Shown here one piece after another: positions 2,247 to 27,229 of a DNA stretch of 64,000 nucleotides; within the stretch, counting starts at the first letter, position 1, and every line of letters starts with the position of its first letter. The notes beneath the pieces were generated by a model. That model was not told the DNA's origin, searched no databases, and saw only the letters and a list, made by a program, of their open reading frames with translations. Origin of the DNA: a bacterium (GTDB lineage Bacteria > Patescibacteriota > Andersenbacteria > UBA10190); the NCBI GenBank assembly GCA_030698495.1, contig JAUYKA010000033.1, positions 7,840 through 71,839 on the forward strand, read 5' to 3'. The translations under genes and the position numbers were made by a program.

Positions 2247-2257
2247 GGGCTATATAG

Positions 2258-6624: not shown

Positions 6625-6694
6625 TTAACTTAACAATTAGCAACATGCTTCACTAACCCAATACAACGCTATACTACGACACGCATGTAAGTCT

Positions 6695-8563: not shown

Positions 8564-8692
8564 GTCAACCTTTATATTACGACATTCTAAATGCTACCAC
8601 ATTATATACAACACCAATAAAGGTCAACGTGACGCAGTTCCTACCCGCCATTGCACCCGCCTTCTAGGAGATCCTCTATTAAAATATTCAGA

Positions 8693-9472
8693 TTACTTAT
8701 TGCTATATGTCCTTATCATATCTTGTGCGATTTTGATTTTTAAATTCTTATCTCTTTTATAGAATATGGAGCCTTTTGCTTGCTTTTCATCGCAATGCCT
8801 AACTTTTACCGCCCAGTTTTCGAAAAAAGCGATAGGAATGTTATTCTTAACAAATTCATTTGAAATAACATCCTCATAATTGCAATCATCTGTATACTTG
8901 GAAAAATTATAGATTCCATTGCTATGTGCAAAATCTAAAAACCTTTGATTGTGATAAACCAAAAAATGAGATGACACTCTATTAACGTCCCTAACATTTT
9001 TTTCTAGCGGACGACCAATATCTTCCAACTTCCACACCCAACAATCATAATCAATTACACTGGAAATTAAACATGTTTCTGGATGTCTATCAAAAAAAGC
9101 AGATATCTCCCCCAAGGCGTCATAATCATTTTTTTCCAAAACCGCAATAACATCACTTTCAATCTCTATCGTGTAGTCGCTTTTACCAGAAAGAGCATGA
9201 AAGTGAGCATTATTAGACGGATCTCCAGGACAAATAAAGTTCTTGTTCGCTTTATTTCGTATCCTTACTTCGTCAATATTGAGTTTGTCACGAAAGTGAA
9301 TAATTTGTTCTATAGAGCTGTCGGTTGCTCCGTCAACTTGCGCAATGACTTCGTATTTACAGCTTGAATTTTTAGTTAATGCATCTACGCTGATAGGCAA
9401 TGTTATATTCCAAAGATCAAGCTCATTTGCCACAATGGATATTATTTGAAATTTTGGTCGGTCATTCAACAT
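8693..9472 (-). CDS. GT2-like glycosyltransferase (GT-A fold), last gene of the AT-rich operon.
   Basis: N-terminal IISIV...EVIAQVDGATDSS resembles the DxD/DGSTD region of family-2 glycosyltransferases. Very low GC. Confidence 0.4.
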   Translation of the reverse strand: MLNDRPKFQIISIVANELDLWNITLPISVDALTKNSSCKYEVIAQVDGATDSSIEQIIHFRDKLNIDEVRIRNKANKNFICPGDPSNNAHFHALSGKSDYTIEIESDVIAVLEKNDYDALGEISAFFDRHPETCLISSVIDYDCWVWKLEDIGRPLEKNVRDVNRVSSHFLVYHNQRFLDFAHSNGIYNFSKYTDDCNYEDVISNEFVKNNIPIAFFENWAVKVRHCDEKQAKGSIFYKRDKNLKIKIAQDMIRTYSNK

Positions 9473-11400
9473 ACCGAAGAATCATAAACAGCATAATCTC
9501 CATCTTCGCTAAATAAGCTGGAGCTACTGTTTTTAATCCACAACGGAAAATATCTTTTATTTCTTTCACCAAAAACTACCGCTCGAGAAGGCATTGGATT
9601 GACTGTTGATTCTTCCCCATTTTTATTAAATGCAAGAATTCCAATAATCTCAGGCACAAGCAAACAAGATCTGTTTTTATCATTGATTGTTATATTAAAC
9701 CCGATTTCTTGCGTTCCTACTGGAATGGGGAATTCTAAGACATTTTCTTCTTTCACTATGCCAGTTGTATCGTGAGAAGCAGTGTCTTTAAATGGCACTT
9801 CTATAAAACCAGTATTTTGTTTGTGCTCATGAACAACTAAATCTCTTTTCTTTCTAAGCGTATATTTTTCATACTCAGCAACGTCTTTATAGAAACAAAT
9901 CTCATCCCACTGATATTTATGTTTGACACTCTTATCGATAAGAATATTTATTTCATCCAAATGATCACCCACAACTCTCACTCTCAACTTATGATTGCTA
10001 AAAGAAAGAAAGGTTGTATGTTCCTTCATCGTTACACAAACTTCTTCTTGTCCAATGCGGCCTATGATCCTTGGGGAAAACGCACCCCTCCCTTGGGGCG
10101 GGACTGCATTAATCGCACCGGAAAAATATGGATTTCCCAATTTTTCTAAAACACCTCTTCTTTTTTCTATTAGCTCAGATATAAAGTAAGACTGTAGTTT
10201 AATAAAATGTTTTATGAGTTGGCATTTTACACCGTCCGGTTTTTTAACAGTCTTATTCACAAGCCACCCCTGATAATAACAACCGCCGCCGCATAAATAT
10301 CTTGCCCAACATTTATTACATGGCTTCCTATTCTCAACGGTTTGGTTCATAAAGAGATCCTTTGCGGCCTCACTCACGCCTTCTTCTATACTGCCAATAT
10401 CTTGCCCTTTAGCCCCTACGAAATGAGCGCAAGGATACAATTTCCCATCCCAATCAACATATAATCCTGATTTTCCACAATTGCATCGATATCTCAATAT
10501 CGATCTATTTAATATTCTATAAAAATATCTGAAAAAATAATCCTCTGGGTTTATTGCTTTTAGATACTGCGCAAGCTCATCGTCAGAACTAGCGAGTAGA
10601 AAATCTATGAATTGGCTATATGCTTGTTTAAACTTCGGCAGATTTTCCTCATTCAAAGCAAAGCTTTCTTCGTGGCCGCTATTGACCGGCTTCATGTAAA
10701 TCGATGATTTTATGCCTAGATCAAAAATGTGTTTAAAATTTTTAGAGATATCCAATGTCTCCGCTGTTATAACAGAACAAGCGCCAATGTCGATTTTTTC
10801 CCTTATGGCAAATTGAATTAATTGAGCCAGATCATTATAAGTGCCCTTTTTATTCTTATATCTTCTAAATTTATCATGGTCTTCTTGCACTCCGTCGATA
10901 CTTATGTCCATTGGACTGCCTAAACGTTTTACCATTTTATCGGGAGTAAATATCAAACCGTTAGACATATTAGCTCCCACCCAAACAGTCTTATTGAATT
11001 TTTTACATAGCTTTTTAATGTGGTCTTTTAAGATTTTGTGATACCCCTCAGCGATAAAAGGTTCTCCGGCAACACCAAAATCAATTCTGGCAAACCTCTG
11101 ATCTTCCGATAAGCTCTTAAAAAACAAATCGATTGCCTCTATCGCGGTTCTCATGGTCATCATTTTCGTATTATTTTCCAGTTCTCGTTTCCGAAATACA
11201 CAATACCGACAATCCAAATTACATGACATTGATATACATAATTGAAGCTGTGGGCTTATTTCCTTGAATTCTTTTTTCCACTTAGAAGGCTTACTGTTGG
11301 GTAAATCTGGAATGCTTACACCAAAATCATCTATGCAAAAAACAGAGGATGTGTTTTCATCTATTGCGAATTTTTTATTCTTATGTGTAAATTTTTTCAT
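9466..11400 (-). CDS. Radical SAM enzyme with a SPASM domain and a roughly 230-aa C-terminal extension of unknown function (644 aa).
   Basis: CNLDCRYC (Cx3Cx2C) near the N-terminus. SPASM-type Cys clusters CNCGKSG...C and CNKCWARYLCGGGCYYQG. Confidence 0.8.
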   Translation of the reverse strand: MKKFTHKNKKFAIDENTSSVFCIDDFGVSIPDLPNSKPSKWKKEFKEISPQLQLCISMSCNLDCRYCVFRKRELENNTKMMTMRTAIEAIDLFFKSLSEDQRFARIDFGVAGEPFIAEGYHKILKDHIKKLCKKFNKTVWVGANMSNGLIFTPDKMVKRLGSPMDISIDGVQEDHDKFRRYKNKKGTYNDLAQLIQFAIREKIDIGACSVITAETLDISKNFKHIFDLGIKSSIYMKPVNSGHEESFALNEENLPKFKQAYSQFIDFLLASSDDELAQYLKAINPEDYFFRYFYRILNRSILRYRCNCGKSGLYVDWDGKLYPCAHFVGAKGQDIGSIEEGVSEAAKDLFMNQTVENRKPCNKCWARYLCGGGCYYQGWLVNKTVKKPDGVKCQLIKHFIKLQSYFISELIEKRRGVLEKLGNPYFSGAINAVPPQGRGAFSPRIIGRIGQEEVCVTMKEHTTFLSFSNHKLRVRVVGDHLDEINILIDKSVKHKYQWDEICFYKDVAEYEKYTLRKKRDLVVHEHKQNTGFIEVPFKDTASHDTTGIVKEENVLEFPIPVGTQEIGFNITINDKNRSCLLVPEIIGILAFNKNGEESTVNPMPSRAVVFGERNKRYFPLWIKNSSSSLFSEDGDYAVYDSSVC

Positions 11401-11407
11401 GTCTTAT

Positions 11408-13084
11408 TCAAATTACCTTATATCTAGTTTTTATATCCTGCAAAGCGCCGGCTAGTAATTCATATTTTCCTAATCCCTCAATCTTACTATTTCTAATACA
11501 AATTAAGTCATTTATAATACTCTTCAGTTCCAACCTCGCTTTGTCTGGACATATTTTTAGTTTCTCAAAAACCTCCGGAGAGGCAACCTCTTGGTTATTC
11601 ATAAGCGCTATCCTAGTAACTAGAAACCTCGCCTCTTCAAATAATGATTTAAAAGTTGATATTGTTCTTGTTTTCTCATATTCTGTTTGTTGCTTCCATA
11701 ACGCATCCTTGTAAACTATCCTTTTGTATCTCTCTAAATACTCAAGAAACAATTTGTTATTTCCAGAAACCAATCTTAACTCAAATACCTCAAAAAGATC
11801 CCTTGATTCACCATTTACTACTACGTCTTTTTCTACAGGCCTACCATGAGTCCCCTCGGATCTAACTCCGAGATACGCAAGTAATTCACATGTCAAATTT
11901 TCAATTGGAATAACTGGATAAGTTTTATTGCCTTTAAACATAACAATTTCAAAATCAAGATCGCTTTCCTTGGTTAAAACAAATTCTCCGTATGACCCCC
12001 TGGCTATAATATTTATCTCTGCATAATCTATGTCGACTAACCCACATACTGCTTTAACGATGCTTCTTAGAATGTCGTCATAAATTTCAGCGCTACAGTC
12101 TTTCTGTGCTTCTTTAATTGTATTGATCATTTTCTTATACCCCGCTTCATCGCCCAGAGCGACGATTAGGCTTGCTAAATGAAACTTTGCCTGGTTTCCT
12201 TTTTTAACAGCCATGATTTTTTTCGTTATGCCTAATAATACCCTGAGATCGTCAATACTATTTTGTCTTTTTTTGTACATCAGTAGCGTCCACGTGAAGG
12301 ATATTCTTGCGGAAACTAATTCATCTACAAAATGTCCAACCTCGAATGGTCTCGAATCTTTGTTGATTAATGGTTTTTCTGCATCAATAGTCAATTGGTC
12401 AAAATAATTGAAAAATTTATTTCTGTCTTGATATGCCATGGTTTTCCATCCAACCTTTTCAACTCTGTCCATCTTTCTAGCTTTATTGGAAAAACAATAC
12501 TTGCGTTCAAGAAGTTTGACATATTCCTCGACCAAATCTTCTTCAAAGGATTGAAATAAATTGATTTTCAAAAATAATAGATACCTTCGATCTATACCCG
12601 AATCTTCAACCTTAAATAATTTCTCAAAATCTATTAAGAAGTATGTTTTATTCAAGTAAAACATATTACGTAGCGCTAACCCCCTCCAAAGATAACCGTT
12701 TTGAAGAAAATGATTGTTTATACGAACCACATCTTCAAAAAGCAACTCCTTGTTCATCAAAGGATTCTGGTTCAATGGAAGCCCTAAATCCTCAAAAATA
12801 AAGAAACTATCTGCCCTGCTAATAGGCATTAAGACCTTAGCATCTGTTACATTATTCTTACGCAATAGCTGGTCTGCTAACTTTAGATTTTCTATTTCTT
12901 TCTGTTTGCATTTTTTAATGATATAACTTTTGTTTTTAATCCTAGAATATATTTTAATTACATCATTTTTAAATGGATTAACATTTTCTAGTTCAAGAAC
13001 TCGTAAATCATTTTCTCTTGTTATAATGCCTTTCCTTTTTAATAACTTGATAATTGCACTGTTCATAAAATTTAACTCCAGCAA
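11408..13084 (-). CDS. Two-domain protein: N-terminal aminoglycoside/choline-kinase-like fold (IDFE Brenner-type motif, non-canonical catalytic loop) followed by a Pol-beta-type nucleotidyltransferase domain (GS-x10-DLDFE).
   Basis: Motifs YLWRGLALRNMFY...FLIDFEKLF and ARGSYGEFVLTKESDLDFEIV read from the translation. Confidence 0.5.
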   Translation of the reverse strand: MLELNFMNSAIIKLLKRKGIITRENDLRVLELENVNPFKNDVIKIYSRIKNKSYIIKKCKQKEIENLKLADQLLRKNNVTDAKVLMPISRADSFFIFEDLGLPLNQNPLMNKELLFEDVVRINNHFLQNGYLWRGLALRNMFYLNKTYFLIDFEKLFKVEDSGIDRRYLLFLKINLFQSFEEDLVEEYVKLLERKYCFSNKARKMDRVEKVGWKTMAYQDRNKFFNYFDQLTIDAEKPLINKDSRPFEVGHFVDELVSARISFTWTLLMYKKRQNSIDDLRVLLGITKKIMAVKKGNQAKFHLASLIVALGDEAGYKKMINTIKEAQKDCSAEIYDDILRSIVKAVCGLVDIDYAEINIIARGSYGEFVLTKESDLDFEIVMFKGNKTYPVIPIENLTCELLAYLGVRSEGTHGRPVEKDVVVNGESRDLFEVFELRLVSGNNKLFLEYLERYKRIVYKDALWKQQTEYEKTRTISTFKSLFEEARFLVTRIALMNNQEVASPEVFEKLKICPDKARLELKSIINDLICIRNSKIEGLGKYELLAGALQDIKTRYKVI

Positions 13085-14733
13085 GCTGGACTATTACCCC
13101 CGGAAGTGCAAACTTCCGTTTCTTTGGCCCCACCTAAGTTTATCAGACTGTCTATCTCATTATTATACTTATTGATAGTCTCCTCTATGGCTATAGCCAA
13201 TAGTTCATTAGACTGCCACAGACTTTCCTTATCAGTTGAAGGATTACCAATAGTTGTACCAATCACTGTATATGTAATTTTTTCATCATTAGTAATTTTC
13301 CGATTAAAATCATTCAACTTAAACTCATCCATGCAGACATTACCTGCTTTATACAATCGGTCAGAAACCATACTTGTATACTTGCTCACCAAAGAACTGA
13401 TTGCGTTTTTGTCCTTAACGCGCTTAATATCATCTAGTCTTCTTTTGGGAAATACCACAAAAGAAATTCTATAAAAATCTAGATCGTTAAAAACTATAAC
13501 ATTTTCATTTTTCATTAAAATTTGATACCAATAATTTGCTAAATACTGCCTCCGTTCAATTAACTTACCGATAGCTCTCAATCCGATCCCCTTGATTGTT
13601 AACCAGAGCTTCAGAGACTCAAAGCCTCTTGACCCCATGAATGGCGTAGCTAAACCTAAATCCAAATACTCTTTAGCATTAACCTTATCGGGGTACCTAG
13701 AAAAAACATTTGTGGAATTAGGATTTTTAAACAAAACATAACTGCTAGAGTAGGGAATAAACAATGACTTGTGAGGATCTAACGACACTGAGTCTGCGTT
13801 CTCTATGCCTTTTAATAGGTGTTTGTATTTTTCTGAAAACAAAAAACTACCGCCATGGCATGCATCAACGTGCAACCAGACATTATACCGCTGACACATG
13901 CGAGAGATAGCTTCCAGATCATCTAAACCGCTAGTCCTACAATTTCCCGCGACCGCCACGACAAAAAATGGGATTTGATCTTTTGCAGAATTCTCAATAG
14001 CGTTTTTAATATTCAGCACCGAGGATGTGTAATTTTTTCCTGGCTCAGCCCAGATAATCGAATTAGATCCTAGTCCCAACCATGAGCAAGCGCTTTTATA
14101 GGAATAATGCTCAATACCCCTAGTCATTACGATGACTGGTTTTTGCTCAACAGAATGAATGCCCCGTTCCTTGATTGAAGGAAATCTATTATTTAACGCA
14201 GTCAGTAAGGCCACATAGTTAGAAAGATTGCCCCCCGTAGTCCACATACCACCAACCTTAGAAAGGGAATTAATCTCTGGCAGTGGTATAGTTTGATATC
14301 CTATTAATTCTCTTAACCAGTTTATAAGCTGGATTTCTATTATTGTTCCTATAGGAGCACTCCGATCAAAAGCTATCTGATTTTGATTTAAAAACTGAGA
14401 ATATATTGCTCCACCAATTGCATATTTCGAATTTCCGCCATCGGGAAAAGCAAGATATTTCTTATCAGCTTGAAGAATCGAGTATTCACCGATCATGTCT
14501 AATAATTTATCCAGATCATTGTCTGAAATTGAATTCTGCGGAATATGTTCGTCAAGTAAAAAGCGCAGCTCTTTGGGGCTCATATAATTAAACACTTTAT
14601 TTTTTCGTAATTTACCCGAATAGAAGTCCAGGCCTTTCCGAATAAACTTATGAAAAAAATCTTCCTCCAATAATGCTTTTTCGGAAGGATCTAGCAAGTA
14701 TTGTGAAACAAATTGGGAGTCTATTTTTCTCAT
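13072..14733 (-). CDS. Group II PLP-dependent amino-acid decarboxylase.
   Basis: MWTTGGNLSNYVAL, HVDACHGGSF and SLDPHKSLF (PLP-lysine) motifs. 553 aa. Confidence 0.75.
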   Translation of the reverse strand: MRKIDSQFVSQYLLDPSEKALLEEDFFHKFIRKGLDFYSGKLRKNKVFNYMSPKELRFLLDEHIPQNSISDNDLDKLLDMIGEYSILQADKKYLAFPDGGNSKYAIGGAIYSQFLNQNQIAFDRSAPIGTIIEIQLINWLRELIGYQTIPLPEINSLSKVGGMWTTGGNLSNYVALLTALNNRFPSIKERGIHSVEQKPVIVMTRGIEHYSYKSACSWLGLGSNSIIWAEPGKNYTSSVLNIKNAIENSAKDQIPFFVVAVAGNCRTSGLDDLEAISRMCQRYNVWLHVDACHGGSFLFSEKYKHLLKGIENADSVSLDPHKSLFIPYSSSYVLFKNPNSTNVFSRYPDKVNAKEYLDLGLATPFMGSRGFESLKLWLTIKGIGLRAIGKLIERRQYLANYWYQILMKNENVIVFNDLDFYRISFVVFPKRRLDDIKRVKDKNAISSLVSKYTSMVSDRLYKAGNVCMDEFKLNDFNRKITNDEKITYTVIGTTIGNPSTDKESLWQSNELLAIAIEETINKYNNEIDSLINLGGAKETEVCTSGGNSPACWS

Positions 14734-14815
14734 AATAATTCATCGAAACTGTATTGACGTTGGACTTACACAAAAAACAGTTTGCACGTAAACATAGCCA
14801 ATGATTCAATATATG

Positions 14816-15913
14816 TCAATAATATGTTTCGCCAAAAGAGATGTTATCCCCCTCTATCGATATTAAGGCTGCCCTTTGCGGATCAATAATTGGCGTTGTC
14901 ATATACATGTCTCGACCATTATATCGACCACTAGTTATCCTAGCAGCCATACGACAACCACCCTCGCATAACATCAAGGCGTTGCACGTTCGACATTCTT
15001 CTGGAAGCATTTTTGGCGATGCCCAAGATTTCATCCTCAGCCAAGTACTCAAAAATTTATCTGGTAAAACGTTGCCAAAGACAACGTCAGAATGGACGCA
15101 TGGTCTCATCGTTCCCGCTGATGAAACAACACAAGACGATACTGCGGCTGAGCAAATTCTGTTTCCGAAGAAACGAACAAACTCTGCTTCTTCGCGCTCA
15201 CCAAAAAGACACCTAGCGACCGGTTCAAGAACATCAACTTTGAGGGACAACTCCTTGTCTATGCGCATCAACTCTCTTAAGCAACGCTTACACTCTACCC
15301 CCGAAAGACAAAGGGGTATATTCGCTCTACATGACGGTAACATGGGGCCTGCACAGAAAGTGCTAACCCCGAGACGCTTTAAGGCCAGAGCTGTATCAAA
15401 TATGAAGTCTAGATTCATTTTTGATACGACCATATTAACGGCAACAGAAAGGTTAACCGCCAATAGACTTTCTATGCCCTTGATAGTTCGGCCGTAATTA
15501 CCACCAGCCCCGGCAATAGTGTTGTGTATGTCCTCTGGACCAAGCACTGAAACCAAGACATGCTTTAAGCCTTGCTCCTTTAGCGCTCGCGCATCTTTGC
15601 ATTGAATTAGAGCCGCATTTGTGTTAAGTCCCGTTTCAATTCCATATGACGTTGCAAGAGCAATGAGCTTAAGCAAGATTTCTTTTCGAAGCATCGGTTC
15701 GCCACCCGTAAACGTTACTAAGCCCACTTTAGCATCTCGCAACTGATCAATGACCATGCTATAGTCATTCATCCCTAATTCGTCTTGGTCTTTTACGAGA
15801 CTATGCCTCCAATAGTTGTAGCAGTGTCTGCATTCTTGATTGCACTGCGAAGTCAATTCTATTTGTACATCTAATGGCGCTGAGAGCCTTTCCATTGCTT
15901 GTCCTCCAAACAA
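14816..15913 (-). CDS. Radical SAM/SPASM-domain maturase-like enzyme (365 aa), first gene of the operon.
   Basis: CNQECRHC radical-SAM motif. C-terminal CSAAVSSC...C and CRTCNALMLCEGGCRMAA SPASM clusters. Confidence 0.8.
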   Translation of the reverse strand: MFGGQAMERLSAPLDVQIELTSQCNQECRHCYNYWRHSLVKDQDELGMNDYSMVIDQLRDAKVGLVTFTGGEPMLRKEILLKLIALATSYGIETGLNTNAALIQCKDARALKEQGLKHVLVSVLGPEDIHNTIAGAGGNYGRTIKGIESLLAVNLSVAVNMVVSKMNLDFIFDTALALKRLGVSTFCAGPMLPSCRANIPLCLSGVECKRCLRELMRIDKELSLKVDVLEPVARCLFGEREEAEFVRFFGNRICSAAVSSCVVSSAGTMRPCVHSDVVFGNVLPDKFLSTWLRMKSWASPKMLPEECRTCNALMLCEGGCRMAARITSGRYNGRDMYMTTPIIDPQRAALISIEGDNISFGETYY

Positions 15914-16087
15914 ATAAACAAGTTTTTAAAAGAACAGCAAGTAAGTGTACAACTATTTTTTACTAATGCAATCAGTAGAACCAACAATATGTCAATTTGC
16001 ATTGGCATACATAGTCATTCTGTTTCCTACCTGCAAACCTAACGATGTGACTAGCCATGCCATCTTAATTTGGTTTGTTATAGATCG

Positions 16088-16163
16088 TCTGAACAATGCC
16101 GACGAGTGGGAGTCGCAGGTGCTGGATTTTGATCACGGGATTTTGCTGGCGGTGCGGGGGTAA
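16088..16163 (+). repeat. 68-bp repeat (gccgacgagtgggagtcgcaggtgctggattttgatcacgggattttgctggcggtgcgggggtaa), copy 2.
   Basis: Direct repeat of 22282-22355, with 3 substitutions. Confidence 0.8.
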
Positions 16164-16309
16164 GGACTACTTTTAAAAACAAGATCGAACTCGAGCTGCT
16201 GCTGTTTGACTAAATGTGACTGTTTGCAGATAATGGAAAGTGCTGTAAACTCTAGTGTTTGGGGTTATTGTTGACTGTTCTTCACAACAACTGATAAAGG
16301 GGTACGGCA

Positions 16310-17380
16310 ATGAGCTGCACAGCTGAAGCGACCGAGGAGGTTGGCCATCACGAGACAAAACGAGACTATTTGCTGGTGATGGACCTGCCGGAGATGGTGC
16401 ACGGTCTGCGCCTGACCGGGCTGAACGTTCCGCCGCGAAACCATGACATCTTTGCCAAGATCAAGGAAGATCTGGCGAAGCTGTTCGGTGTAGTGATGCC
16501 CAAGTACGTCGGTGAAAGCGAGATCACCCTGAAGGTGATCGATATGCAAGAGCTGTCTGATCAGATACTGGCCAAGGCGGTGCAGATGGTCGACAGCATG
16601 AAGCAAGGCTACATTGTGAGCACTTGCATGGATATCGCAAGCATTGTGCTTCACGGCAAAGTCTTCGAAGCTAACCGGCTGATCGACAATACTGGCTCGG
16701 TATTGGGTATCGGACCTAGGCCGGGGCACTATAGCCTGCGGAAGCAGGTGGAAAGCGTGATCACGGACGCGGCTGGTCAACCCATTATCCTGGTGGAAGA
16801 CGGGTTGTTTACCGGGACGACGATGTACGAGGTGATCCGCGAGTTTCAGGCGCGCGGTGCGGAAGTCGAAGCGGTGGTGCTTGGCTTCGCGTTTCCGAAA
16901 GCGAAAGATAAGCTGGCGTCGCTTGCCATGGCACCGAGTGTTCATACGGTCGAGACGGTTCATAATCCGCTCGACTGGGTGCCCGATCACGACTTCTTCC
17001 CGTTCGTGCCCAATTGCGGCCGGGTACTGGGAACTCGTATCAATGGCCAGGTTCATCCGATTTACTCGCATCTGGGGTTCTCGTACAGCGTGCCCTATCT
17101 GTACGGATTCTGCCCCATGGGCGATTGGATCGGCCTGTCGTTGTCGGAGGCACAAGCGAGGGAGCTGACTTGGAACATCCTTCATCTGGACTGCGAGCTG
17201 TTCAGGGTCATCGATGCGATGAACGGTGGAAAAGGCTTCAAGCTCCATGAGTTGGGCAACGCCAGGCCACGCGTTTCCATCCCCTACCGCGTCAATCAGA
17301 AGCATCTGCCGGAGAACGAGAACGATATGACTATCGGCAGGCATCTGGCGGAAGAGACGATGCGCGCCAGTCCGCACTAG
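16310..17380 (+). CDS. Phosphoribosyltransferase-domain protein with a C-terminal extension.
   Basis: PRPP-binding motif ILVEDGLFTGTT. GC-rich. The antisense ORF 16265..17389 is judged an artefact. Confidence 0.55.
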   Translation: MSCTAEATEEVGHHETKRDYLLVMDLPEMVHGLRLTGLNVPPRNHDIFAKIKEDLAKLFGVVMPKYVGESEITLKVIDMQELSDQILAKAVQMVDSMKQGYIVSTCMDIASIVLHGKVFEANRLIDNTGSVLGIGPRPGHYSLRKQVESVITDAAGQPIILVEDGLFTGTTMYEVIREFQARGAEVEAVVLGFAFPKAKDKLASLAMAPSVHTVETVHNPLDWVPDHDFFPFVPNCGRVLGTRINGQVHPIYSHLGFSYSVPYLYGFCPMGDWIGLSLSEAQARELTWNILHLDCELFRVIDAMNGGKGFKLHELGNARPRVSIPYRVNQKHLPENENDMTIGRHLAEETMRASPH

Positions 17381-17389
17381 CGACAACAC

Positions 17390-17425
17390 AGCCGCTTTCT
17401 AACAAAAGAAAGCGGCTTTTCAATA
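17390..17425 (+). terminator. Rho-independent terminator after the PRTase gene.
   Basis: agccgctttct/agaaagcggct stem followed by a TTTT run. Confidence 0.6.
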
Positions 17426-17482
17426 TATGAAAAACCGAATTCATATGGGTGAATATGAATTCGGTTGATGGCTTGCATGGTG

Positions 17483-18130
17483 TCAGCCGGCAAGAACGGT
17501 TCTGTTGTTTGGGGTGACATGCTCAACGAAAGAGAGAACATCGGAGAAGCAGAGATCCGCGTCGGCGCAATCGCTTCCAATTATAATCGTGCGCATGCCG
17601 AGTGATTTGGCGGGCAGGAGGTCTGTGTTCCAGTTATCGCCTATACTGTAGGCGTTGGTCGGAGAGATTTTATACCGGCGCAGACATTCGAGAAAGACTC
17701 TGGAGGTGCACGTCCATTTTACGGGACATGTTTCCGGTTCTCGCCAACCAATGACATCGTCGAAGTCGGAAGAAAGATATCCCAGCTTGGCCAACATCGC
17801 ATGCGCCATATACGTTGGCGAGCCGGTGTAGACCACTTTTTTCCCGGATAGCGACCGGGTTGCGGCTACAATATCAGGCTGCGGAACGATAAGTTCCAGG
17901 GGAGCGGCACAGAGTCGTTTCGCCCAGGCGCTAAAAGGGATGTTCAGGGCGGACAGCGCCAGTTCTCCCCGTCCTTGGCAGGCTTGTCGAAAGTAGGCAA
18001 GCATAGTCATGCCCTCATCTCCGCTGAATTCTTTAATCAATTGTTCCAGCGTCCTTGAATAAACGGTGGTATAGAACTCTGGATTTCTATTGAGAGTACC
18101 GTCTAGGTCGAACACGAAAAGACGTTTCAT
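17483..18130 (-). CDS. HAD-superfamily hydrolase.
   Basis: Motif I FVFDLDGTL. Confidence 0.7.
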   Translation of the reverse strand: MKRLFVFDLDGTLNRNPEFYTTVYSRTLEQLIKEFSGDEGMTMLAYFRQACQGRGELALSALNIPFSAWAKRLCAAPLELIVPQPDIVAATRSLSGKKVVYTGSPTYMAHAMLAKLGYLSSDFDDVIGWREPETCPVKWTCTSRVFLECLRRYKISPTNAYSIGDNWNTDLLPAKSLGMRTIIIGSDCADADLCFSDVLSFVEHVTPNNRTVLAG

Positions 18131-18209
18131 CGTTTTCTCCACTCAAAGTTGTAAGGAACATCTTTTAGGCAACCAGAAGTATGATAACTGTCAAATGATG
18201 ATTATCGCG

Positions 18210-18923
18210 CTACTGATTGTCTAAAAATTCGGTGGTTTTAGTGGTGGCAAATCGCAGGCATTCTTCTGCCGGTTTTTGTCGCAGATAGTTGATTATGTAG
18301 TAAGCAAAAAAGGTGTCGCCGGCGCCGATGGAGTGGTTAAATTCAATTTTGGTATCAGGTGCGGAAATATATTTTTTACCTTTGGCAAAGAGGACGCTTC
18401 CTTTATCTCCATTGGTAACGATGAGCATCTTTTGTTTCAATGTGTCTACTGCCTCTGGCGGCAGATATTCAATTTCTTCCGCCGTTGCTTTCAAGCAGCT
18501 AATGGCATTAATTGTGTCTGAAGTAATATTCCATTGATGTTTTTTGCCATGGGTAATTCCTTCTCGCACATACCCCTGAATATCAATAAATACTAGACCC
18601 CGGTATTCAGATAAACCGGTAAGACTGATTTCGTTTAGAACGGAAGAAATAATTAGTGCCCGATTTTTGATGGCAGCAAAGTTTACCGACAATACGGGCG
18701 GCTCGTAGGTAATGCGGCCGAATTCTCCGTCTTTAGTAATTTTAACTTCTACCTCGGCTGTTGGGGGCGCCATGACATCAAAAGCGCAGTTTTCTTTTTT
18801 AAATATGTTAGACAGGAAAAAGGCAGGGCCGCCGGGCTGTTCTTTTAGCAATTTGCCGGTTTCGTCCACCAGGCGATCGTTAGCAAAGGTCGCCAGGAGA
18901 GCAATGTCTTTAGGCTTGTTCAT
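18210..18923 (-). CDS. PfkB-family (ribokinase-like) carbohydrate kinase.
   Basis: C-terminal NHSIGAGDTFFAYY signature (GAGD anion hole). Confidence 0.6.
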   Translation of the reverse strand: MNKPKDIALLATFANDRLVDETGKLLKEQPGGPAFFLSNIFKKENCAFDVMAPPTAEVEVKITKDGEFGRITYEPPVLSVNFAAIKNRALIISSVLNEISLTGLSEYRGLVFIDIQGYVREGITHGKKHQWNITSDTINAISCLKATAEEIEYLPPEAVDTLKQKMLIVTNGDKGSVLFAKGKKYISAPDTKIEFNHSIGAGDTFFAYYIINYLRQKPAEECLRFATTKTTEFLDNQ

Positions 18924-19461
18924 ACTGTTGACGGGCTGATTTAACGGCCATTTTGACTGCTTCCTCACTGTTAGTTGCTGATTGTACTTGAATGCGTTTT
19001 CTACTGTCTAAATACTCTCCAGCTAATTTGTCAGCCCAACCGCCTGTTCCAGTCAGGGCAATTATGGGTATACCGGCTTGATAGGCAATGGCTGCCTCCG
19101 TGAGTGTTCCGGATCCGCCGCTGATTAGAATTATAGCGTCGCAACTTAGAACTAGCGTTAGTTCTCTGCCGCCGCCACGCTCAAGACCAGTAGCAATAAC
19201 CACGTCGGTGTTTTTTTCACGAATGTTTAGTCCCTTTCCGTAAGTAACACCAATGGTTAACCCACCGGATTTTTTAGCACCGCGGGCGGCGGCAGTAGAC
19301 AAGGAATCAACATCTTTTTCCGCACCAAAGACCAATACGGCACCAGCTTTAGCTAGACGAGAGCCGATATCTTCCGCAATTTCAGCGATTTTCTGGGAAT
19401 ATTTTTGATCGGCAGCTGATCCCATAACGCCTATTTGTAGTTTTCGTTGATTGGTATTCAT
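18910..19461 (-). CDS. LOG-family (TIGR00725-type Rossmann) protein, cytokinin riboside 5'-monophosphate phosphoribohydrolase-like.
   Basis: PGGxGTxxE motif (ISGGSGTLTEAA). 183 aa. Confidence 0.7.
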   Translation of the reverse strand: MNTNQRKLQIGVMGSAADQKYSQKIAEIAEDIGSRLAKAGAVLVFGAEKDVDSLSTAAARGAKKSGGLTIGVTYGKGLNIREKNTDVVIATGLERGGGRELTLVLSCDAIILISGGSGTLTEAAIAYQAGIPIIALTGTGGWADKLAGEYLDSRKRIQVQSATNSEEAVKMAVKSARQQYEQA

Positions 19462-19757
19462 CCGATTTTAGTGGTTAAGAAATAAAAAATCCTTCGCGTA
19501 AGAAGGAAATAGTATATTGTTATAAAAATACTATTTCCTTAAGAAGGATGGTTATGATGATGTAAATTGTGGATGTTTTGAATCATTGCGAATACCGGTT
19601 TTGTAAAGTTGTTTTGTTTGTTAAAGTGTACTTTAAATAGGCTGTGTGTCAAGGAGAGTGATTGACGGCACATGTTTTGTATATTAGCTTTAAGTGTTAT
19701 GACAGTTTTTGTTCGAACGTTGACAACCACAATATCTTCTGGGAAAGGGGTGTCGTT

Positions 19758-21164
19758 ATGAGTACGCCATCACAAACCGTCAAGCCGGAACTGGTAGGAG
19801 GAACAAGAGACCTGCTGCCGGCGGAGGCGTTGGCACAGAACACCGTGATTGCCAGGGTACGGAAGGTCTACGAATCCTTCGGCTTCGTGCCCTTGGAAAC
19901 GCCATGCCTGGAGAGATGGGATGTGTTGACCGGCGGCGCGCCTGACTTCAACAAGAGCCTGTTCAGAACGACTATCGTCAGGGGCTCTGAAGATGCCGGC
20001 ATTGATGCGGAGGAGCTGGGCAGCAGTGATTCAACGCTGCGTTTTGACTTGACGGTGCCTTTGGCCAGAGTTGTGTCCGCTTATCCGACTCTGCCGCGGC
20101 CGTTTAAGCGCTACCAGATAGGCCGGGTGTTCCGCGGTGAACGGCCGCAGGCGGGTCGCTTTCGGGAGTTTACTCAGTTTGATTTTGATATCGTTGGTTC
20201 CCGCTCTATCCTGGCTGACGTGGAAGTCATCCAGGTAATGTACGCGGCCATGCGCGCGTTGGGAGTTGAGGATTTTGTGATTCGTTTCAATACGCGCAAA
20301 GTCCTAAACGGATTGGCCGACTTGGTTGGTTGCACGAACGCCAAAGAGCTTCTTCGCATCATTGATAAGTTGGACAAGAAAGGTTTTGATGGCGTAGCGG
20401 AGGCTTTGCGACGTCAACCGGTCAATGAGTTTGATGATGCCGCTCTGGCTTTTTCTGATGCGCAAGTGGACCGGGTTCTCGGTTTCCTGAAACTACAGGG
20501 TGCGGATACACAAACCACACTGGCGGGATTGAAAGACCTGTTTGTCGGCACGACCAGCGAAGCGGCGGTTGAGGGTATCAAAGAGCTGACTACTATCGTG
20601 GAAATGTTGAAAGCGCTCGGTATCCCCCAAGCAAACTGGTCAGTGGATCTGTCAGTCGCCCGCGGGTTGGATTACTACAACGGTCCCGTTTTCGAGACTA
20701 GTCTGACAGACATGCCGGAATTGGGCAGTGTTTTATCGGGCGGACGGTTCGACGGACTGATGGACCGCTTTGTGCCGGGAAGCAATATTGCCGGTGTTGG
20801 CGCTTCCGTAGGCATCGACCGCATGGTAATCGGTCTGCAGAAGCTAGGCTTGTTGCCAAGCGTGAACTCGGTTACGCAAGTCCTGGTGACGGTATTCGCC
20901 GAAGAGCTGCGTACGGTGTCGCTGGTACTGGCCAGCGAGCTGCGCGACAAAGGAGCCAAGACTGAAATCTACTTTGGCGAAGACCGCACTTTGCGAGCCC
21001 AGCTGGCATACGCGACCAAGCAGGGAATCCCTTATGTAGTGATTGCCGGCCCGGAAGAGATTGAGAAAGGAACGGTGCAGCTGAAGGACATGAGCGCAAG
21101 AAAGCAGGAGGTGTTGACAAGAGATGCTTGCGCGGATACGATAATGGCCAAGCTCAATTCTTGA
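19758..21164 (+). CDS. hisS: Histidyl-tRNA synthetase.
   Basis: Class II motifs including FREFTQFDFDIVG and LSGGRFDGL. Start at the ATG with GAAAGGGG RBS at 19758. Confidence 0.85.
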   Translation: MSTPSQTVKPELVGGTRDLLPAEALAQNTVIARVRKVYESFGFVPLETPCLERWDVLTGGAPDFNKSLFRTTIVRGSEDAGIDAEELGSSDSTLRFDLTVPLARVVSAYPTLPRPFKRYQIGRVFRGERPQAGRFREFTQFDFDIVGSRSILADVEVIQVMYAAMRALGVEDFVIRFNTRKVLNGLADLVGCTNAKELLRIIDKLDKKGFDGVAEALRRQPVNEFDDAALAFSDAQVDRVLGFLKLQGADTQTTLAGLKDLFVGTTSEAAVEGIKELTTIVEMLKALGIPQANWSVDLSVARGLDYYNGPVFETSLTDMPELGSVLSGGRFDGLMDRFVPGSNIAGVGASVGIDRMVIGLQKLGLLPSVNSVTQVLVTVFAEELRTVSLVLASELRDKGAKTEIYFGEDRTLRAQLAYATKQGIPYVVIAGPEEIEKGTVQLKDMSARKQEVLTRDACADTIMAKLNS

Positions 21165-21185
21165 ATTTGTTCTCTATATGAAGGT

Positions 21186-21259
21186 GGGTACGTGGCTCAA
21201 TTGGTTAGAGCGCGAGGTTGTGACCCTCGAGGTTACGGGTTCGAATCCCGTCGTACCCC
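21186..21259 (+). tRNA. tRNA-His (anticodon GTG), immediately downstream of hisS.
   Basis: Cloverleaf read manually. Acceptor GGGTACG/CGTACCC, D-arm GCTC-AATTGGTTA-GAGC, anticodon arm CGAGG-TTGTGAC-CCTCG, T-arm ACGGG-TTCGAAT-CCCGT. CCA is not encoded. Confidence 0.8.
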
Positions 21260-21269
21260 CTTCTCTTTC

Positions 21270-21295
21270 AACTCGCCTTGTGCGAGTTTTTTTGT
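21270..21295 (+). terminator. Terminator after tRNA-His.
   Basis: aactcgc-cttgt-gcgagtt followed by a T7 run. Confidence 0.7.
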
Positions 21296-21300
21296 TTATA

Positions 21301-21338
21301 TAAAAAGAAAAGCCGTAAGTAGGGTTTTACTTACGGCC
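21301..21338 (-). terminator. Terminator for the minus-strand amidohydrolase gene.
   Basis: gccgtaagta/acttacggc stem with a T-run on the minus strand. Confidence 0.6.
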
Positions 21339-21349
21339 ATGAAGGTCGG

Positions 21350-22189
21350 TTATCGGTCGAATAGCAAGGTTGCATTTTCCCAAAATACTAATTTCTGCTC
21401 TCGCTCGTTCATCGGCAGTGTTTTCACTGCTGCCAGATATTCCTTTTGGCTGTAGAGAGGCCAATCAGTGCCAAAAAGGCACTTGCTGAACCCTCCGGCA
21501 ATGTTGGCAAAAGTAGTCATAGCTCCTTGAAATTCTACGAGTTCCGTTGATAAGACTGTCTTGTATTCCGTAAAGAAACCAGACAAGTCAACATATAGAT
21601 TATTGTGTTTCGCAATAGCTTTAGCGGTTTCTTGTACCCACGGGTTACCAAAGTGCGCCATAATTATCTTAAGATCAGGATGTTGTTCGGCTAGTGCTTC
21701 AATGTTTCTTGGGTGTGTTTGCTCTTGGTTGCCAAGTGTTCCTTCTTGGAGAAATCCTGTGTGAAAAATGACAGGAACCCGCAATGTAGCGCAGAGCTTG
21801 TAGATTGTTTGCGGTCTTTGGTCGACAGGAAAGTAGTTTTCGTATCCAGGATAGAACTTTACGCCACAAATAGCTTTGGTTTCAATTTGCTGACATATCT
21901 CGTGCTCTTGTTGGGCCGCTTCGCGTCTTAGGGAAAAATTGCCTACAACTTTAAGACGAGGATTATTAGCGCATTGTTTGATGGCTTCGTCGGAAGATAC
22001 ACCTTGCCAGTCGTCCCCGCTGTCAAAATCGTCTGAAACTACAATAGAAATTGCAATTCCCGCATTATCCATTGAGTCTTGTAAGTCTTGTGCGGTTACT
22101 ATTTGATAATCCTTGCCAATTGCTCCTATATGCACATGAGAGTCAATAACGAGAGTGGGCGCTTTTTTCTCTTGGCTTGATAAATCCAT
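21350..22189 (-). CDS. Amidohydrolase-2 family metal-dependent hydrolase (TIM barrel).
   Basis: IDSHVHIG motif. Paralogue (about 55% identity by eye) of 35389..36201. Confidence 0.65.
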   Translation of the reverse strand: MDLSSQEKKAPTLVIDSHVHIGAIGKDYQIVTAQDLQDSMDNAGIAISIVVSDDFDSGDDWQGVSSDEAIKQCANNPRLKVVGNFSLRREAAQQEHEICQQIETKAICGVKFYPGYENYFPVDQRPQTIYKLCATLRVPVIFHTGFLQEGTLGNQEQTHPRNIEALAEQHPDLKIIMAHFGNPWVQETAKAIAKHNNLYVDLSGFFTEYKTVLSTELVEFQGAMTTFANIAGGFSKCLFGTDWPLYSQKEYLAAVKTLPMNEREQKLVFWENATLLFDR

Positions 22190-22281
22190 GGTATTTCTCC
22201 ATGTGTTTCGGTTTTTTGTTGTGAACGTACAGAAATAAATATTTACAGCCAGTTATGATAACAAGTTTTTAAAATAATACC

Positions 22282-22355
22282 AATGGCAATGCCGACGAAT
22301 GGGAATCGCAGGTGCTGGACTTTGATCACGGGATTTTGCTGGCGGTGCGGGGGTA
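22282..22355 (+). repeat. 68-bp repeat, copy 3.
   Basis: Direct repeat of 16088-16163. Confidence 0.8.
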
Positions 22356-22361
22356 AATCAA

Positions 22362-24311: not shown

Positions 24312-24670
24312 AGTTGGATAATTTCTGTTTCGCCGGATGCCGGCTCTTCGGACCGGAATGACATAATGCGTTTGGCAACAAGTTTGGCTTGGTATAGACT
24401 AAAATTGCATTTTTGTTTCTGGTGCCAGCGTAAATGAAGCAACAAATCCAGTTGTGTTTTTATATCTATGAAAAAATTGTAATGGTATTTAATCATGCAT
24501 TAAATGATAAAAGATTATTAAAGAAAAAACACGACATCCTTGTCGTGCTTGGGGGCGTTGGTTCACCGTGGCGTGTCCTTGCCGCGACATGGCGGAGGGG
24601 GACATTGGCACTTGCCGACGATCTTACCGTTCGTGATTCCTCTGGGTCGATGTTTGGGCACAATCTTTGT
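24312..24670 (+). repeat. Composite repeat: element A (24312-24420) joined to element B (24420-24670).
   Basis: The A part recurs at 27107-27215 and the B part at 2583-2830. Confidence 0.8.
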
Positions 24671-25812: not shown

Positions 25813-26397
25813 ATGAATAAAGGAGACTATATTTCAGCAATATTACGGGCCAAGGGGACGGTTTTTACGGCTAGTGAGATAATGCTGATATGGAACGAGA
25901 CAGGAAGTGCCGCGGCCAGAGCAAGGATAAATTATTATGCTAGGAACGGCGATATTTACCGAATTCGACGCGGTATTTATGCAAAAGATAAGGATTATAA
26001 CCGCCGCGAGCTGGCTACTAAAGTTTATATTCCCTCTTATGTTAGTTTCGAGACGGTGCTGGCAGAAGCGGGTATAATTTCTCAATTTTACAAGCAGATT
26101 TTTGTTGCTTCATATTTGTCGCGTGAATTGGAAATTGGTGGACAAAAATATGCATACAAGCATATTAAAGACGAAATTCTTACTAATCCGTCCGGTATTG
26201 TTAATGACAGCACTTTTTCGACAGCTTCCGCAGAACGGGCTTTTTTGGATGTACTTTATTTAAATGTGGATTATCATTTTGATAACCTGCGCCCGTTGAA
26301 TTGGGAAAGGGTGTTTGAATTGTTGCCTATTTATGGCGGCATACGCCGCATGGAAGAAGTAGTGAGAAAAATTTACAAATCGTATCAGACGGAATAA
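25813..26397 (+). CDS. AbiEi-like antitoxin/transcriptional regulator (type IV TA / abortive infection).
   Basis: N-terminal wHTH-like region. Immediately upstream, same strand, of a DUF1814/AbiEii nucleotidyltransferase. Confidence 0.5.
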   Translation: MNKGDYISAILRAKGTVFTASEIMLIWNETGSAAARARINYYARNGDIYRIRRGIYAKDKDYNRRELATKVYIPSYVSFETVLAEAGIISQFYKQIFVASYLSRELEIGGQKYAYKHIKDEILTNPSGIVNDSTFSTASAERAFLDVLYLNVDYHFDNLRPLNWERVFELLPIYGGIRRMEEVVRKIYKSYQTE

Positions 26398-26401
26398 AAA
26401 T

Positions 26402-27103
26402 ATGTCTCTTGATATTGCCATTCATAGAAGCGTGTTAATAAAGATACTGAAGGATATTTATACGGATTCCTCTTTGGGCCCCAGTTTGGGTTTTAAGGGG
26501 GGTACGGCGGTATATTTGTTTTATAATCTAAATCGCTTTTCGGTTGATTTGGATTTTGATTTGCTGACTGTTGATGAAGAAGGTTATGTTTTTGAGCGTG
26601 TGAAGAAAATTCTAAAAAAGTACGGGTTGGTAAAAGATGCGGTGAAAAAAAGATATAACTTGTTTTTTATGATGGCTTACGATGATAAAGTCCCCGGAGC
26701 ACAGAATATAAAAGTGGAGATTAACCGACGGGATTTCGGCTCAAAGTATGAGTCAAAAAGTTATTTGGGGATTCCGGTAAAGGTAATGGTGCGGGAAGAT
26801 ATGGCGGCACACAAGTTGGTGGCGATGCTGGAGCGCATTGGCCGGACTAATCGTGATATTTATGATGTTTTTTTCTTTTTGCAAAACGATTGGCCGATAA
26901 ATAAATCAATAGTGGAGGCTCGCACCGGGCTTGGATGGAATGAATATCTGAAAAAGGTGATTGATAAATTAGAGAAGTTGGCGAATCGCAACATTTTGGC
27001 CGGCATGGGCGAATTACTGGACGAAAAGCAAAAAGCATGGGTTAAGGAGAATTTAAAAAGAGAGGTCGTTTTTCTATTGAAGTTGAAGCTGGAGAAGGAG
27101 TAA
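26402..27103 (+). CDS. AbiEii/AbiGii-family nucleotidyltransferase toxin (DUF1814).
   Basis: GFKGGTAVYLFYNLNRFSVDLDFD motif. Confidence 0.65.
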   Translation: MSLDIAIHRSVLIKILKDIYTDSSLGPSLGFKGGTAVYLFYNLNRFSVDLDFDLLTVDEEGYVFERVKKILKKYGLVKDAVKKRYNLFFMMAYDDKVPGAQNIKVEINRRDFGSKYESKSYLGIPVKVMVREDMAAHKLVAMLERIGRTNRDIYDVFFFLQNDWPINKSIVEARTGLGWNEYLKKVIDKLEKLANRNILAGMGELLDEKQKAWVKENLKREVVFLLKLKLEKE

Positions 27104-27106: not shown

Positions 27107-27215
27107 TTTCTGTTTCGCCGGATGCCGGCTCTTCTGACCGGAATGACATAATGAGTTTGGCTAAACGTTTGGCTTGTTATAGACTTTAATTGCATTTTTG
27201 TTTCTTTGACAATTT
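27107..27215 (+). repeat. Repeat element A, second copy, ending in TTGACA just upstream of the lectin gene.
   Basis: About 90% identical to 24312-24420. Confidence 0.75.
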
Positions 27216-27229
27216 GCGGAGGAAGAGCG

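Follow-up and report, generated by a model that had tools for sequence, protein, structure and literature searches.

Introduction

When a genomic island inserts into a protein-coding gene, it brings a substitute for the gene end and leaves a remnant of the original end together with imperfect attL/attR repeats, as described for dusA-specific islands (PMC4482086). The 13-kb RiPP island of microcin H47 in E. coli, which carries imperfect direct repeats and encodes no recombinase, is able both to excise and to integrate, and recombination takes place within tracts of identity between its repeats (PMC3191183, PMC5426353). Here we describe a 64,000-nt window of Andersenbacteria DNA, in which three copies of a gene-end repeat (c1, c2 and c3) form an array that is best, if tentatively, read as recombination-junction repeats of this kind.

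Similarly to the dusA-specific islands (PMC4482086), the DNA at this locus, in part putatively heterologous, is bracketed by imperfect direct repeats that stem from a gene end, a displaced gene-end remnant persists as a stray fragment, and the differences between repeats preserve the meaning of the reading frame. Unlike those islands, this locus lacks both an integrase gene beside the repeat and an intact target gene at an end of the array; its tandem copies number three, the repeat is 70 nt long rather than about 21 nt, and the array is known as a static arrangement of sequence. The H47 island (PMC3191183, PMC5426353) resembles it in combining a RiPP cluster of about 13 kb with extensive imperfect direct repeats and no recombinase. 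The mobility of the H47 island has been shown experimentally, however, and the attachment sequences it uses occur widely in E. coli, whereas the present locus is known as a static arrangement and its repeat is a clearly dead coding fragment confined to one Andersenbacteria population. The third comparison is with MITEs and internally deleted IS elements, which may be matched here by a short unit (257 bp) with terminal inverted repeats, a possible 4-bp target duplication and an ORF tail ending just within the right terminus. In contrast to such elements, both termini occur in one copy only, neither similarity to a transposase nor a family of full copies is present, and the pattern of inverted repeats plus flank is no more than chance would give in the window.

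Results and discussion

Repeat copies and the seams on which they lie

The most complete copy, c1 (positions 16094 to 16163, forward strand), comprises the last 22 codons and the TAA of a lost ORF and reads NADEWESQVLDFDHGILLAVRG followed by the stop. c2 (22287 to 22356, forward strand) has the same orientation with a start-to-start spacing of 6193 nt, matches c1 at 67 of 70 bases and is perfectly identical to it over the last 36 nt; the 29-nt core common to the two has two exact matches, against 0.00 expected in shuffles. c3 (about 2201 to 2252, forward strand) is again in the orientation of c1 and c2, and is left-truncated, frameshifted by an inserted T and closed by TAG. An earlier note, made from the letters of the window, had recognised two long copies in the same orientation and a partial third, each lying intergenically. 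This picture stands, all three copies being flanked by called genes, with the corrections that the coordinates were off by up to 6 nt, that the third copy is longer than the 33 bp assigned to it, and that TAA does not end every copy.

The limits of homology differ between the copies. Between c1 and c2 it begins 2 nt ahead of an ATG in both and ends exactly at the TAA, which in c2 is separated by 5 nt from the stop codon of a convergent C39-peptidase gene. Homology of c3 to c1 extends 6 nt beyond the stop codon, with agreement at five of these six nt, and the right flank of c2 does not share it. To the left, c1 and c2 have in common a 15-mer, AACAAGTTTTTAAAA (E=7e-5), found on the forward strand at 15917 to 15931, 162 nt left of c1, and at 22260 to 22274, 12 nt left of c2. 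Both c1 and c2 are crossed, flanks included, by independent NCBI MAG contigs (L005 and L002, respectively) in which the repeat sequence is identical, and the breaks in the Logan contigs of SRR13727534 fall precisely within the repeat. The layout of c1 and c2 is not an assembly artefact. The locus is carried by near-identical assemblies only, and on database evidence the repeat appears unique to one population of Andersenbacteria, a lineage of the candidate phyla radiation.

The copies sit at seams between DNA segments. Segment A (2253 to 16093, 13.8 kb), between c3 and c1, is an AT-rich, mostly minus-strand cluster encoding rSAM/SPASM maturase-like proteins, a PLP decarboxylase, ArgRS, NifS and NifU; its GC content is 0.37-0.42, its tetranucleotide usage is atypical (r=0.55-0.73, compared with 0.90 right of c2) and its GC skew is negative, of opposite sign. 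Segment B (16164 to 22286, 6.1 kb), between c1 and c2, encodes PRTase-like, HAD hydrolase, PfkB kinase, LOG-like, HisRS and amidohydrolase products and has a composition near that of native DNA (r=0.82). It does contain hisS and tRNA-His as had been noted, namely a class-II HisRS gene and a tRNA-His(GTG) at 21186 to 21260. GC content jumps and GC skew changes sign at c1, which was rightly placed at the edge of the AT-rich operon (GC content 36% in 15945-16091 and 59% in c1), and in c2, too, the composition breaks where the repeat begins on the left. c3 starts no more than 6 nt from the end of homology to a paralogous pilin-like locus (L011), whose breakpoint at 2194/2195 is immediately to its left. 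Because the repeat marks the places where DNA segments have been patched together, we consider a recombination scar its most likely nature, rather than a working RNA or regulatory element.

Coding origin and dead state of the repeat

The repeat originates from a protein-coding gene, of which it forms the 3' end, as shown by its substitution pattern, its codon usage and the end of homology at the stop codon. The copies differ by nine substitutions, of which seven (including CTG>TTA, GGG>GGA and TAA>TAG) are silent when read in the stop-terminated frame; by simulation, P is 0.014 for this frame, or 0.027 when any frame is allowed, a statistic that rests on just these nine changes. The codon-usage log-odds of the stop-terminated frame were +7.0 bits for c1 and +9.0 bits for c2, compared with 5.5 +/- 3.6 bits for real in-frame windows of 23 codons and -12 to -14 bits for off-frame windows, which never reached 7; a best-of-six-frames value of at least 7 occurred in 0.28% of shuffles. 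This frame thus reads as coding sequence, contrary to the doubt earlier cast on its coding identity.

The lost gene, here called X, would have encoded a protein with the C-terminus ...DFDHGILLAVRG. No intact parent protein was found in 5.8 billion protein clusters or 1.84 billion HMMER representatives, and there were no DNA matches to the repeat in GTDB genomes, JGI metagenomes or IMG/VR. Among 15 billion sequences, the sole protein with this C-terminus was a 65-aa ORF at c1 itself. The Logan assembly of the same sample likewise has no intact copy, and intact X was not found within the window, the left end of the array included. It had been anticipated that the element might prove to be the conserved 3' end of a multi-copy gene family with intact paralogues elsewhere; a gene end it is, but no such paralogues were found. 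None of the three copies belongs to an intact gene. An in-frame stop lies six codons upstream in c2, so no translation is possible in its coding frame, and c3 has both an upstream stop and the frameshift. The element is best read as a non-functional scar of X, which is intact in no available assembly.

The 65-aa ORF (15966 to 16163, forward strand; PGAP Q8P73_04740, hypothetical protein) is ATG-led and ends in c1 in the stop-terminated frame. It is probably a chance fusion of the AT-rich flank to c1, since it has no Shine-Dalgarno sequence by eye, no homologues and a composition jump at the c1 boundary. Both long copies also contain an out-of-frame ATG-led ORF (26 and 43 aa), and with c1 closing the 65-aa ORF as well, an ATG-led frame is not, as had been supposed, peculiar to the second copy. 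It is quite improbable that the repeat holds a live small gene, which could take two alternative forms. The 65-aa ORF could encode a genuine small protein, of membrane or immunity-like type, in which case c2 and c3 would be fragments of paralogous pseudogenes; it was called by PGAP, and its frame is open across AT-rich DNA, but its third-position GC, counted from the sequence, rises from about 36% to 77% within the ORF. Alternatively the ATG-led, Cys-rich frame (MPTSGSRRCWILITGFCWRCGG...) could encode a RiPP-type peptide served by the rSAM/SPASM and C39 genes nearby. The onset of homology 2 nt before the ATG would suit such a peptide, as would its three Cys and GG and its position beside the SPASM maturase gene at c1 and the double-glycine-type C39 peptidase gene at c2. 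However, the ATG frame scored -8.4 and -7.2 bits, resembling off-frame sequence, and all three c1/c2 differences in it change an amino acid. Neither ORF is preceded by the Shine-Dalgarno sequence that neighbouring genes possess, no family or homologue was found for either, and both lie on the strand opposite the maturase operon.

We regard as very unlikely a cis element in current use, whether an upstream activator or operator for the minus-strand genes that begin 100-250 nt left of each copy or a small RNA or terminator. Each copy does lie upstream of the start of a minus-strand gene (1100-2086, 14816-15895 and 21350-22189), and a predicted -35 hexamer adjoins c2; such a position in three of three cases arises one time in eight by chance, and the distances to the gene starts vary (about 100 to 180 nt). 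The promoter of gene 1100-2086 is kept almost base for base in the paralogous locus L011, which has no element, and this speaks against the shared regulatory element that the earlier note had proposed. Its suggestion of a small RNA or terminator module fares no better. Rfam gave no match to the repeat even at E<=5, the RNA of either strand folds no more stably than shuffles (z of +0.5 to +1.7), neither c1 nor c2 has a terminator-like site, and dyad symmetry is absent. A cis element would also leave the coding-type substitution and codon signals unexplained.

Insertion, transposition or duplication

With somewhat less than even confidence, we favour a reading in which the three copies are att-type junction repeats that remain after insertion of DNA into the 3' end of X. 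Here both the site-specific insertion as a process and the order of events are what we infer. The same-orientation copies would represent attL, an internal att and attR, and two DNA segments would have been inserted successively into the 3' end of X, A being the AT-rich RiPP-like cluster (2.2-16.1 kb) and B the 6.1-kb hisS/tRNA-His segment. Every incoming segment would have brought its own gene-end copy, so that the previous end would be displaced to the far side at each insertion. c2, next to the convergent C39 gene, would then be the original chromosomal gene end, and c1 and c3 the gene ends borne by the elements. A later rearrangement may have joined a duplicated segment of the pilin operon to c3 at 2194/2195, removing X and the left third of c3.

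This insertion scheme agrees with the direct repeats that bracket the candidate insertions, c3/c1 over 13.8 kb and c1/c2 over 6.1 kb, and tandem related elements would give the flank pattern seen in the 15-mer left of c1 and c2, the right flanks of c1 and c3 and the shared break at the left edge. Against it, X is placed by the model at the left end of the array and is not intact there. Pfam and NCBIfam scans of the ORFs tested and the precomputed Pfam assignments of called genes returned no integrase, recombinase or transposase family; with no recombinase encoded in or near the segments, past mobility would have needed a trans-acting or since-lost enzyme. Segment B may not be an acquired element, given its near-native composition and given that its hisS and tRNA-His may be the only copies. 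The att-like site was one of four options raised in the earlier note, and it fits best, even with the integrase and an intact target gene missing.

A decayed small transposable element, either an internally deleted IS or MITE-like, is an unlikely explanation. X would be the transposase, its stop codon just within the right end; c1 would be the most complete copy and c2 and c3 nested deletion derivatives, and the direct-orientation copies would once have flanked cargo or acted as recombination substrates. c1 does lie within a 257-bp unit (15923 to 16179) that has perfect 10-bp inverted termini, TTTTTAAAAG and CTTTTAAAAA, with CAAG on both outer sides, and the exact terminal 10-mer occurs at just those two sites in 64 kb. 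The 65-aa ORF spans this unit from 34 nt after its left end to 6 nt before its right end and is open across 49 AT-rich codons, and the unit contains everything in c2 and c3 that is homologous. IS copies are frequently absent from MAGs, which could explain the absent parent, although the Logan contigs from this sample also lack an intact copy. The 257-bp unit could be a MITE-like signature or could be chance, as an inverted repeat with a 4-nt flank arises in about 20% of shuffled windows. The right terminus is missing from c2 and c3, and no part of the 65-aa ORF has transposase homology. The 6 nt just outside the left terminus, AACAAG, are also found at c2, which is not expected from independent insertions lacking target specificity. 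It is precisely where c1/c2 homology starts on the left that the composition changes, and there a junction of two DNAs fits better than an intragenic deletion.

Plain segmental duplication or ectopic gene conversion is equally unlikely. The end of X and adjacent intergenic DNA would have been copied to intergenic sites by illegitimate or homologous recombination and then eroded, with no site-specific process. Non-site-specific duplication is clearly active in the region, since other dispersed direct repeats are present (D1, D3 and a 1.8-kb paralogous segment). Within the same 30 kb, repeats of 243 nt (98% identity) and 99 nt (92% identity) occur together with the 1.8-kb segment, which has near-identical patches; all of these have direct orientation and lie between genes or at the ends of genes. 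The absence of a recombinase also suits such copying. What it does not predict is that homology should end exactly at a stop codon, that differences should be mostly silent, that c1 and c2 should have an identical left boundary with a composition break, or that copies should coincide with seams in composition and skew.

Two other classes of element were considered and rejected. Integron attC sites are not matched, as the repeat has no self-complementarity (z>0) and no RYYYAAC/GTTRRRY boxes, and there is no integrase. For the TR/VR pair of a diversity-generating retroelement, no reverse transcriptase family was found in the scanned ORFs and no YxDD-type motif was seen by eye in the 373-aa ORF at 34185-35306, which NCBIfam leaves unnamed; both copies lie outside intact genes, and one of the three mismatches is T/C.

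There is a slim chance that crossover takes place at the repeat in a module-exchange system of candidate-phyla-radiation bacteria, recombinase-less or mobilised in trans. If this were so, whole functional cassettes, such as a RiPP-like rSAM cluster with its own ArgRS and a block of HisRS with tRNA-His, would have been moved into one hotspot, and 'parasitic' mobility like that of the H47 island would operate in ultra-small genomes. The only activity plausible at present is that the 36-bp perfect tract of c1 and c2 acts as a substrate for homologous recombination.

Layout of the repeated element

Repeat searches and direct reading of the sequence confirmed the repeat described in the earlier note, with two long copies and one partial copy. 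The long copies, c1 (16094-16163, plus strand) and c2 (22287-22356, plus strand), are identical at 67 of 70 bases, share the same orientation and are spaced 6193 bp apart; their 29-nt core occurs exactly twice in the window, against 0.00 occurrences expected from shuffles. The partial copy, c3 (~2201-2252), carries an extra T within a T-run and terminates with TAG, so it is not the case, as had been stated, that every copy ends with TAA. ATG-led ORFs, previously reported for the second copy only, are present at both c1 and c2. No further copies of the element were found within the 64-kb window.

The placement of hisS and tRNA-His between the long copies holds, as the c1-c2 interval encodes a PRTase-like protein, a HAD hydrolase, a PfkB kinase, a LOG-like protein, HisRS, tRNA-His(GTG) and an Amidohydro_2 protein. 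Similarly, c1 lies at the exact end of the AT-rich operon, where the first long copy had been located. The TAA of c2 is 5 nt from the stop of a convergent C39-peptidase gene, and a minus-strand ORF ends 11 nt from the TAG of c3. The host genome is a MAG of Candidatus Andersenbacteria (Patescibacteria/CPR), and the layout was recovered, both flanks included, in independently assembled NCBI MAG contigs across c1 (L005) and c2 (L002). Logan contigs of SRR13727534 begin or end within the perfect core of the repeat, the behaviour expected of a de Bruijn graph at a two-copy repeat; the repeats account for short-read assembly breaks of this organism at these points.

Coding origin and present state of the copies

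Read in the frame that its stop codon closes, the element translates as NADEWESQVLDFDHGILLAVRG followed by the stop, and it formed the end of a lost protein gene (gene X), whose product would end in ...DFDHGILLAVRG. All three differences between c1 and c2 are silent and fall at third codon positions. Relative to c3, CTG>TTA, GGG>GGA and TAA>TAG are likewise silent, D>N and F>I being the only replacements; altogether 7 of the 9 substitutions among the copies are silent. With the number and type of substitutions held constant, simulation gave this bias P=0.014 in the stop-closed frame and 0.027 when the best of all six frames was taken. With 28 window genes as its training set, a codon model scored the stop-closed frame at +7.0 bits in c1 and +9.0 bits in c2, compared to 5.5 +/- 3.6 for genuine in-frame 23-codon windows and a mean of -12 to -14 for off-frame windows, none of which reached 7; 0.28% of element shuffles scored >=7 in any frame. 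The ATG-led frame scored -8.4 and -7.2, resembling off-frame sequence. The similarity of c1 and c2 ends on the right at the stop codon, exact to the base. By three independent signals, namely substitutions, codon usage and boundary, the element is a former genuine coding sequence.

None of the three copies is a gene now. An in-frame stop lies six codons upstream in c2, which lacks a start codon, and c3 has an upstream stop as well as a frameshift. Copy c1 forms the 3' end of a 65-72-codon ORF annotated by PGAP (Q8P73_04740). GC content in this ORF is 36% over the upstream 49 codons versus 59% in c1, and third-position GC rises from ~36% to 77% at c1 by our own count. No Shine-Dalgarno sequence is visible ahead of it, and HMMER, Pfam and PDB searches found no homologues. 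Its openness is mildly unexpected, in that 49 AT-rich codons would lack a stop in ~3% of cases by chance (a rough estimate). We interpret the ORF as a fortuitous in-frame fusion, and consider a live small gene very unlikely.

Searches for an intact parent gene

A concatenated peptide query in four frames gave no match among 5.8e9 protein clusters, and a HMMER search of 1.84e9 representatives with the 72-aa form of the c1-ending ORF returned only the ORF itself (as the 65-aa form) and spurious eukaryotic repeat proteins. Exact look-up of the 65-aa ORF found nothing on record. Degenerate DNA patterns for both peptide halves gave nothing real in 185,579 GTDB species genomes (one chance match, L001) and were empty in JGI metagenomes and IMG/VR, as were tblastn searches of phage and plasmid records and peptide queries of Pfam and PDB. 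Look-ups of the flanking proteins revealed no alternative junction and returned only near-identical assemblies; homologues of the C39 peptidase in other Parcubacteria (70-77% identity) lacked synteny and a comparable convergent gene. A likeness of the peptide to an amidohydrolase C-terminus (WENATLLFD) was at chance level (E ~3-5) and was discarded. The earlier note held that its reading would be refuted by the conserved 3' end of a multi-copy gene family with intact paralogues elsewhere; of this, the gene 3' end is borne out, whereas these searches found no intact paralogues.

Functional readings and flanking sequence

Several present functions had been suggested for the element. As a small RNA, it matched no Rfam family even at E<=5, and the predicted folds of both strands of c1 and c2 were less stable than those of shuffles (z +0.5 to +1.7). 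A terminator module finds no terminator-like site in c1 or c2. A regulatory element shared by several operons fares no better: gene 1100-2086 has a near-identical promoter and 5' end in L011, a paralogous pilin-like locus (JAXMKP010000009.1) that is free of the element, and a shared operator is unlikely. Overall, a live cis-element or RNA is highly improbable; the element shows no sign of present function and is probably a scar. An integron attC site and a DGR TR/VR pair were also considered, and both failed on defining features. A repeat of the tRNA-His 3' end serving as an att site was rejected as the sequence is present in a single copy.

The only significant similarity between flanks is AACAAGTTTTTAAAA (E=7e-5), which precedes c1 by 162 nt and c2 by 12 nt on the left side and has no other exact copy in the window. 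Just past the stop, 5 of 6 nt are common to c1 and c3 and not to c2. Perfect 10-bp inverted repeats surround c1 (15923-15932 and 16170-16179), with CAAG outside each. Such termini might suggest a decayed IS or MITE; when windows were shuffled locally, ~20% contained a comparable configuration by chance, and no recombinase or transposase family was detected among window ORFs that were scanned or carry precomputed Pfam matches. We regard a decayed IS or MITE as unlikely.

The position of c1 coincides with a jump in GC content and a sign change in GC skew (~16000-16150); skew is negative over 1-16 kb and positive over 16-64 kb irrespective of gene strand. Tetranucleotide correlation to a 29-64 kb reference was 0.55 and 0.73 for the halves of the AT-rich segment between c3 and c1 (2253-16093), 0.82 for the segment between c1 and c2 (16164-22286) and 0.90 right of c2. 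To the left of c3, L011 is collinear with window positions 355-2194, and homology ends at 2194/2195; past this breakpoint, L011 carries pilin-like genes missing from the window. The homology break lies just left of the start of c3 (~2201), and c3 is therefore truncated at the junction with the duplicated segment. For the 328-aa protein on the left side of c3, the one homologue is P0126 (66% identity), which its accession places on a different contig of the same MAG.

Separately, the skew switch at ~16000-16150 could mark either an origin that escapes recognition or the border of a block that was translocated or inserted; a replication origin was rejected there, as no DnaA-box cluster is present. 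The 355-2194 stretch and L011 are same-MAG paralogues of one pilin-like operon segment. The 328-aa secreted protein has a promoter and signal peptide near-identical to those in L011 and a mature part at just 66%, and the neighbouring pilin-like gene is 94% identical to its counterpart, the kind of mosaic that gene conversion or diversifying selection typically leaves.

Origin of the repeats

The element is probably a dead coding fragment serving as some kind of recombination scar. A model of tandem att-type junction repeats covers most of the features together and is a real possibility, short of probable. It covers the direct orientation of the copies, the shared left edge of c1 and c2 with the composition break there, the right edge at the exact stop codon, the mostly silent differences, the kinship of c1 with c2 in the left flank and with c3 in the right flank, the native-looking context of c2, and the seams at c1 and c3. 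In this scenario, DNA segments would have been inserted one after another into the 3' end of gene X, every incoming segment bringing a replacement gene end, and X and the left part of c3 would have been lost afterwards in the 2194/2195 rearrangement. Similarly, islands inserted at dusA supply a replacement gene end per insertion (PMC4482086). A precedent for the lack of an island-borne recombinase is the microcin H47 island, a RiPP cluster of 13 kb that lies between imperfect direct repeats and depends on host functions (PMC3191183, PMC5426353).

Segmental duplication that is not site-specific would have parallel cases in the same region, where other direct repeats occur: D1 (2569-2811 and 24409-24651; 243 nt, 98% identity) and D3 (24322-24420 and 27107-27205; 99 nt, 92% identity). 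We consider this origin improbable. The only plausible present-day activity is homologous recombination over the 36 bp in which c1 and c2 match perfectly. If the segment between them were deleted, hisS and tRNA-His would go with it, and these may be the genome's sole copies; if so, duplication alone would be tolerated.

The feature is real but ordinary, a repeated gene-end remnant at the seams of a mosaic CPR region; direct-repeat junction scars are a known kind of structure, of which this is a new instance. Its value is as a marker delimiting two gene blocks in an Andersenbacteria genome, the AT-rich RiPP-like cluster with ArgRS and the HisRS/tRNA-His block, and the bracketed DNA holds more interesting biology than the element itself. 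Descriptions of mobile DNA and genome plasticity in Andersenbacteria are poor. If the repeats are recombination sites, they would show that islands can accrete in a CPR bacterium without carrying an integrase.

Other features of the region

The AT-rich operon (4178-15895, minus strand) encodes two radical SAM/SPASM proteins (9466-11400 and 14816-15895), the former nearest to PapB/SCIFF-type peptide maturases (NCBIfam E=5e-50, under curated cut-offs), together with a PLP-dependent decarboxylase, two large proteins without a family, arginyl-tRNA synthetase, NifS and NifU. The operon resembles a RiPP-type cluster with an aminoacyl-tRNA synthetase of its own. ArgRS (6695-8563) lies within this cluster and HisRS with tRNA-His (19662-21260) within the 6.1-kb bracketed block; MetRS and ValRS are encoded elsewhere in the window.

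Within D1, a terminator-like hairpin lies on the minus strand (2710-2687); D1 matches no Rfam family and is not unusual in fold stability, and Logan contigs break there too. One copy of D3 adjoins the second copy of D1, and the other is directly upstream of a PEP-CTERM C-type-lectin gene (27206-29086). D3 probably represents duplication of a promoter or 5' module, and a weaker stretch resembling it is found to the left of the first D1 copy. An AbiEi-like antitoxin and AbiEii toxin (25813-27103; precomputed Pfam PF08843) are located between the second copies of D1 and D3. Amidohydro_2 paralogues are found at 21350-22189, adjoining c2 on the left, and at 35389-36201. From reading of the translation alone, a 412-aa ORF at 47318-48556 is a candidate TsaD-like gene with basic low-complexity stretches (e.g., ...RAQGPRKATSRRSLRAMAGTARGRQRSK...) resembling insertions, which would be unusual; TsaD is a universally conserved protein.
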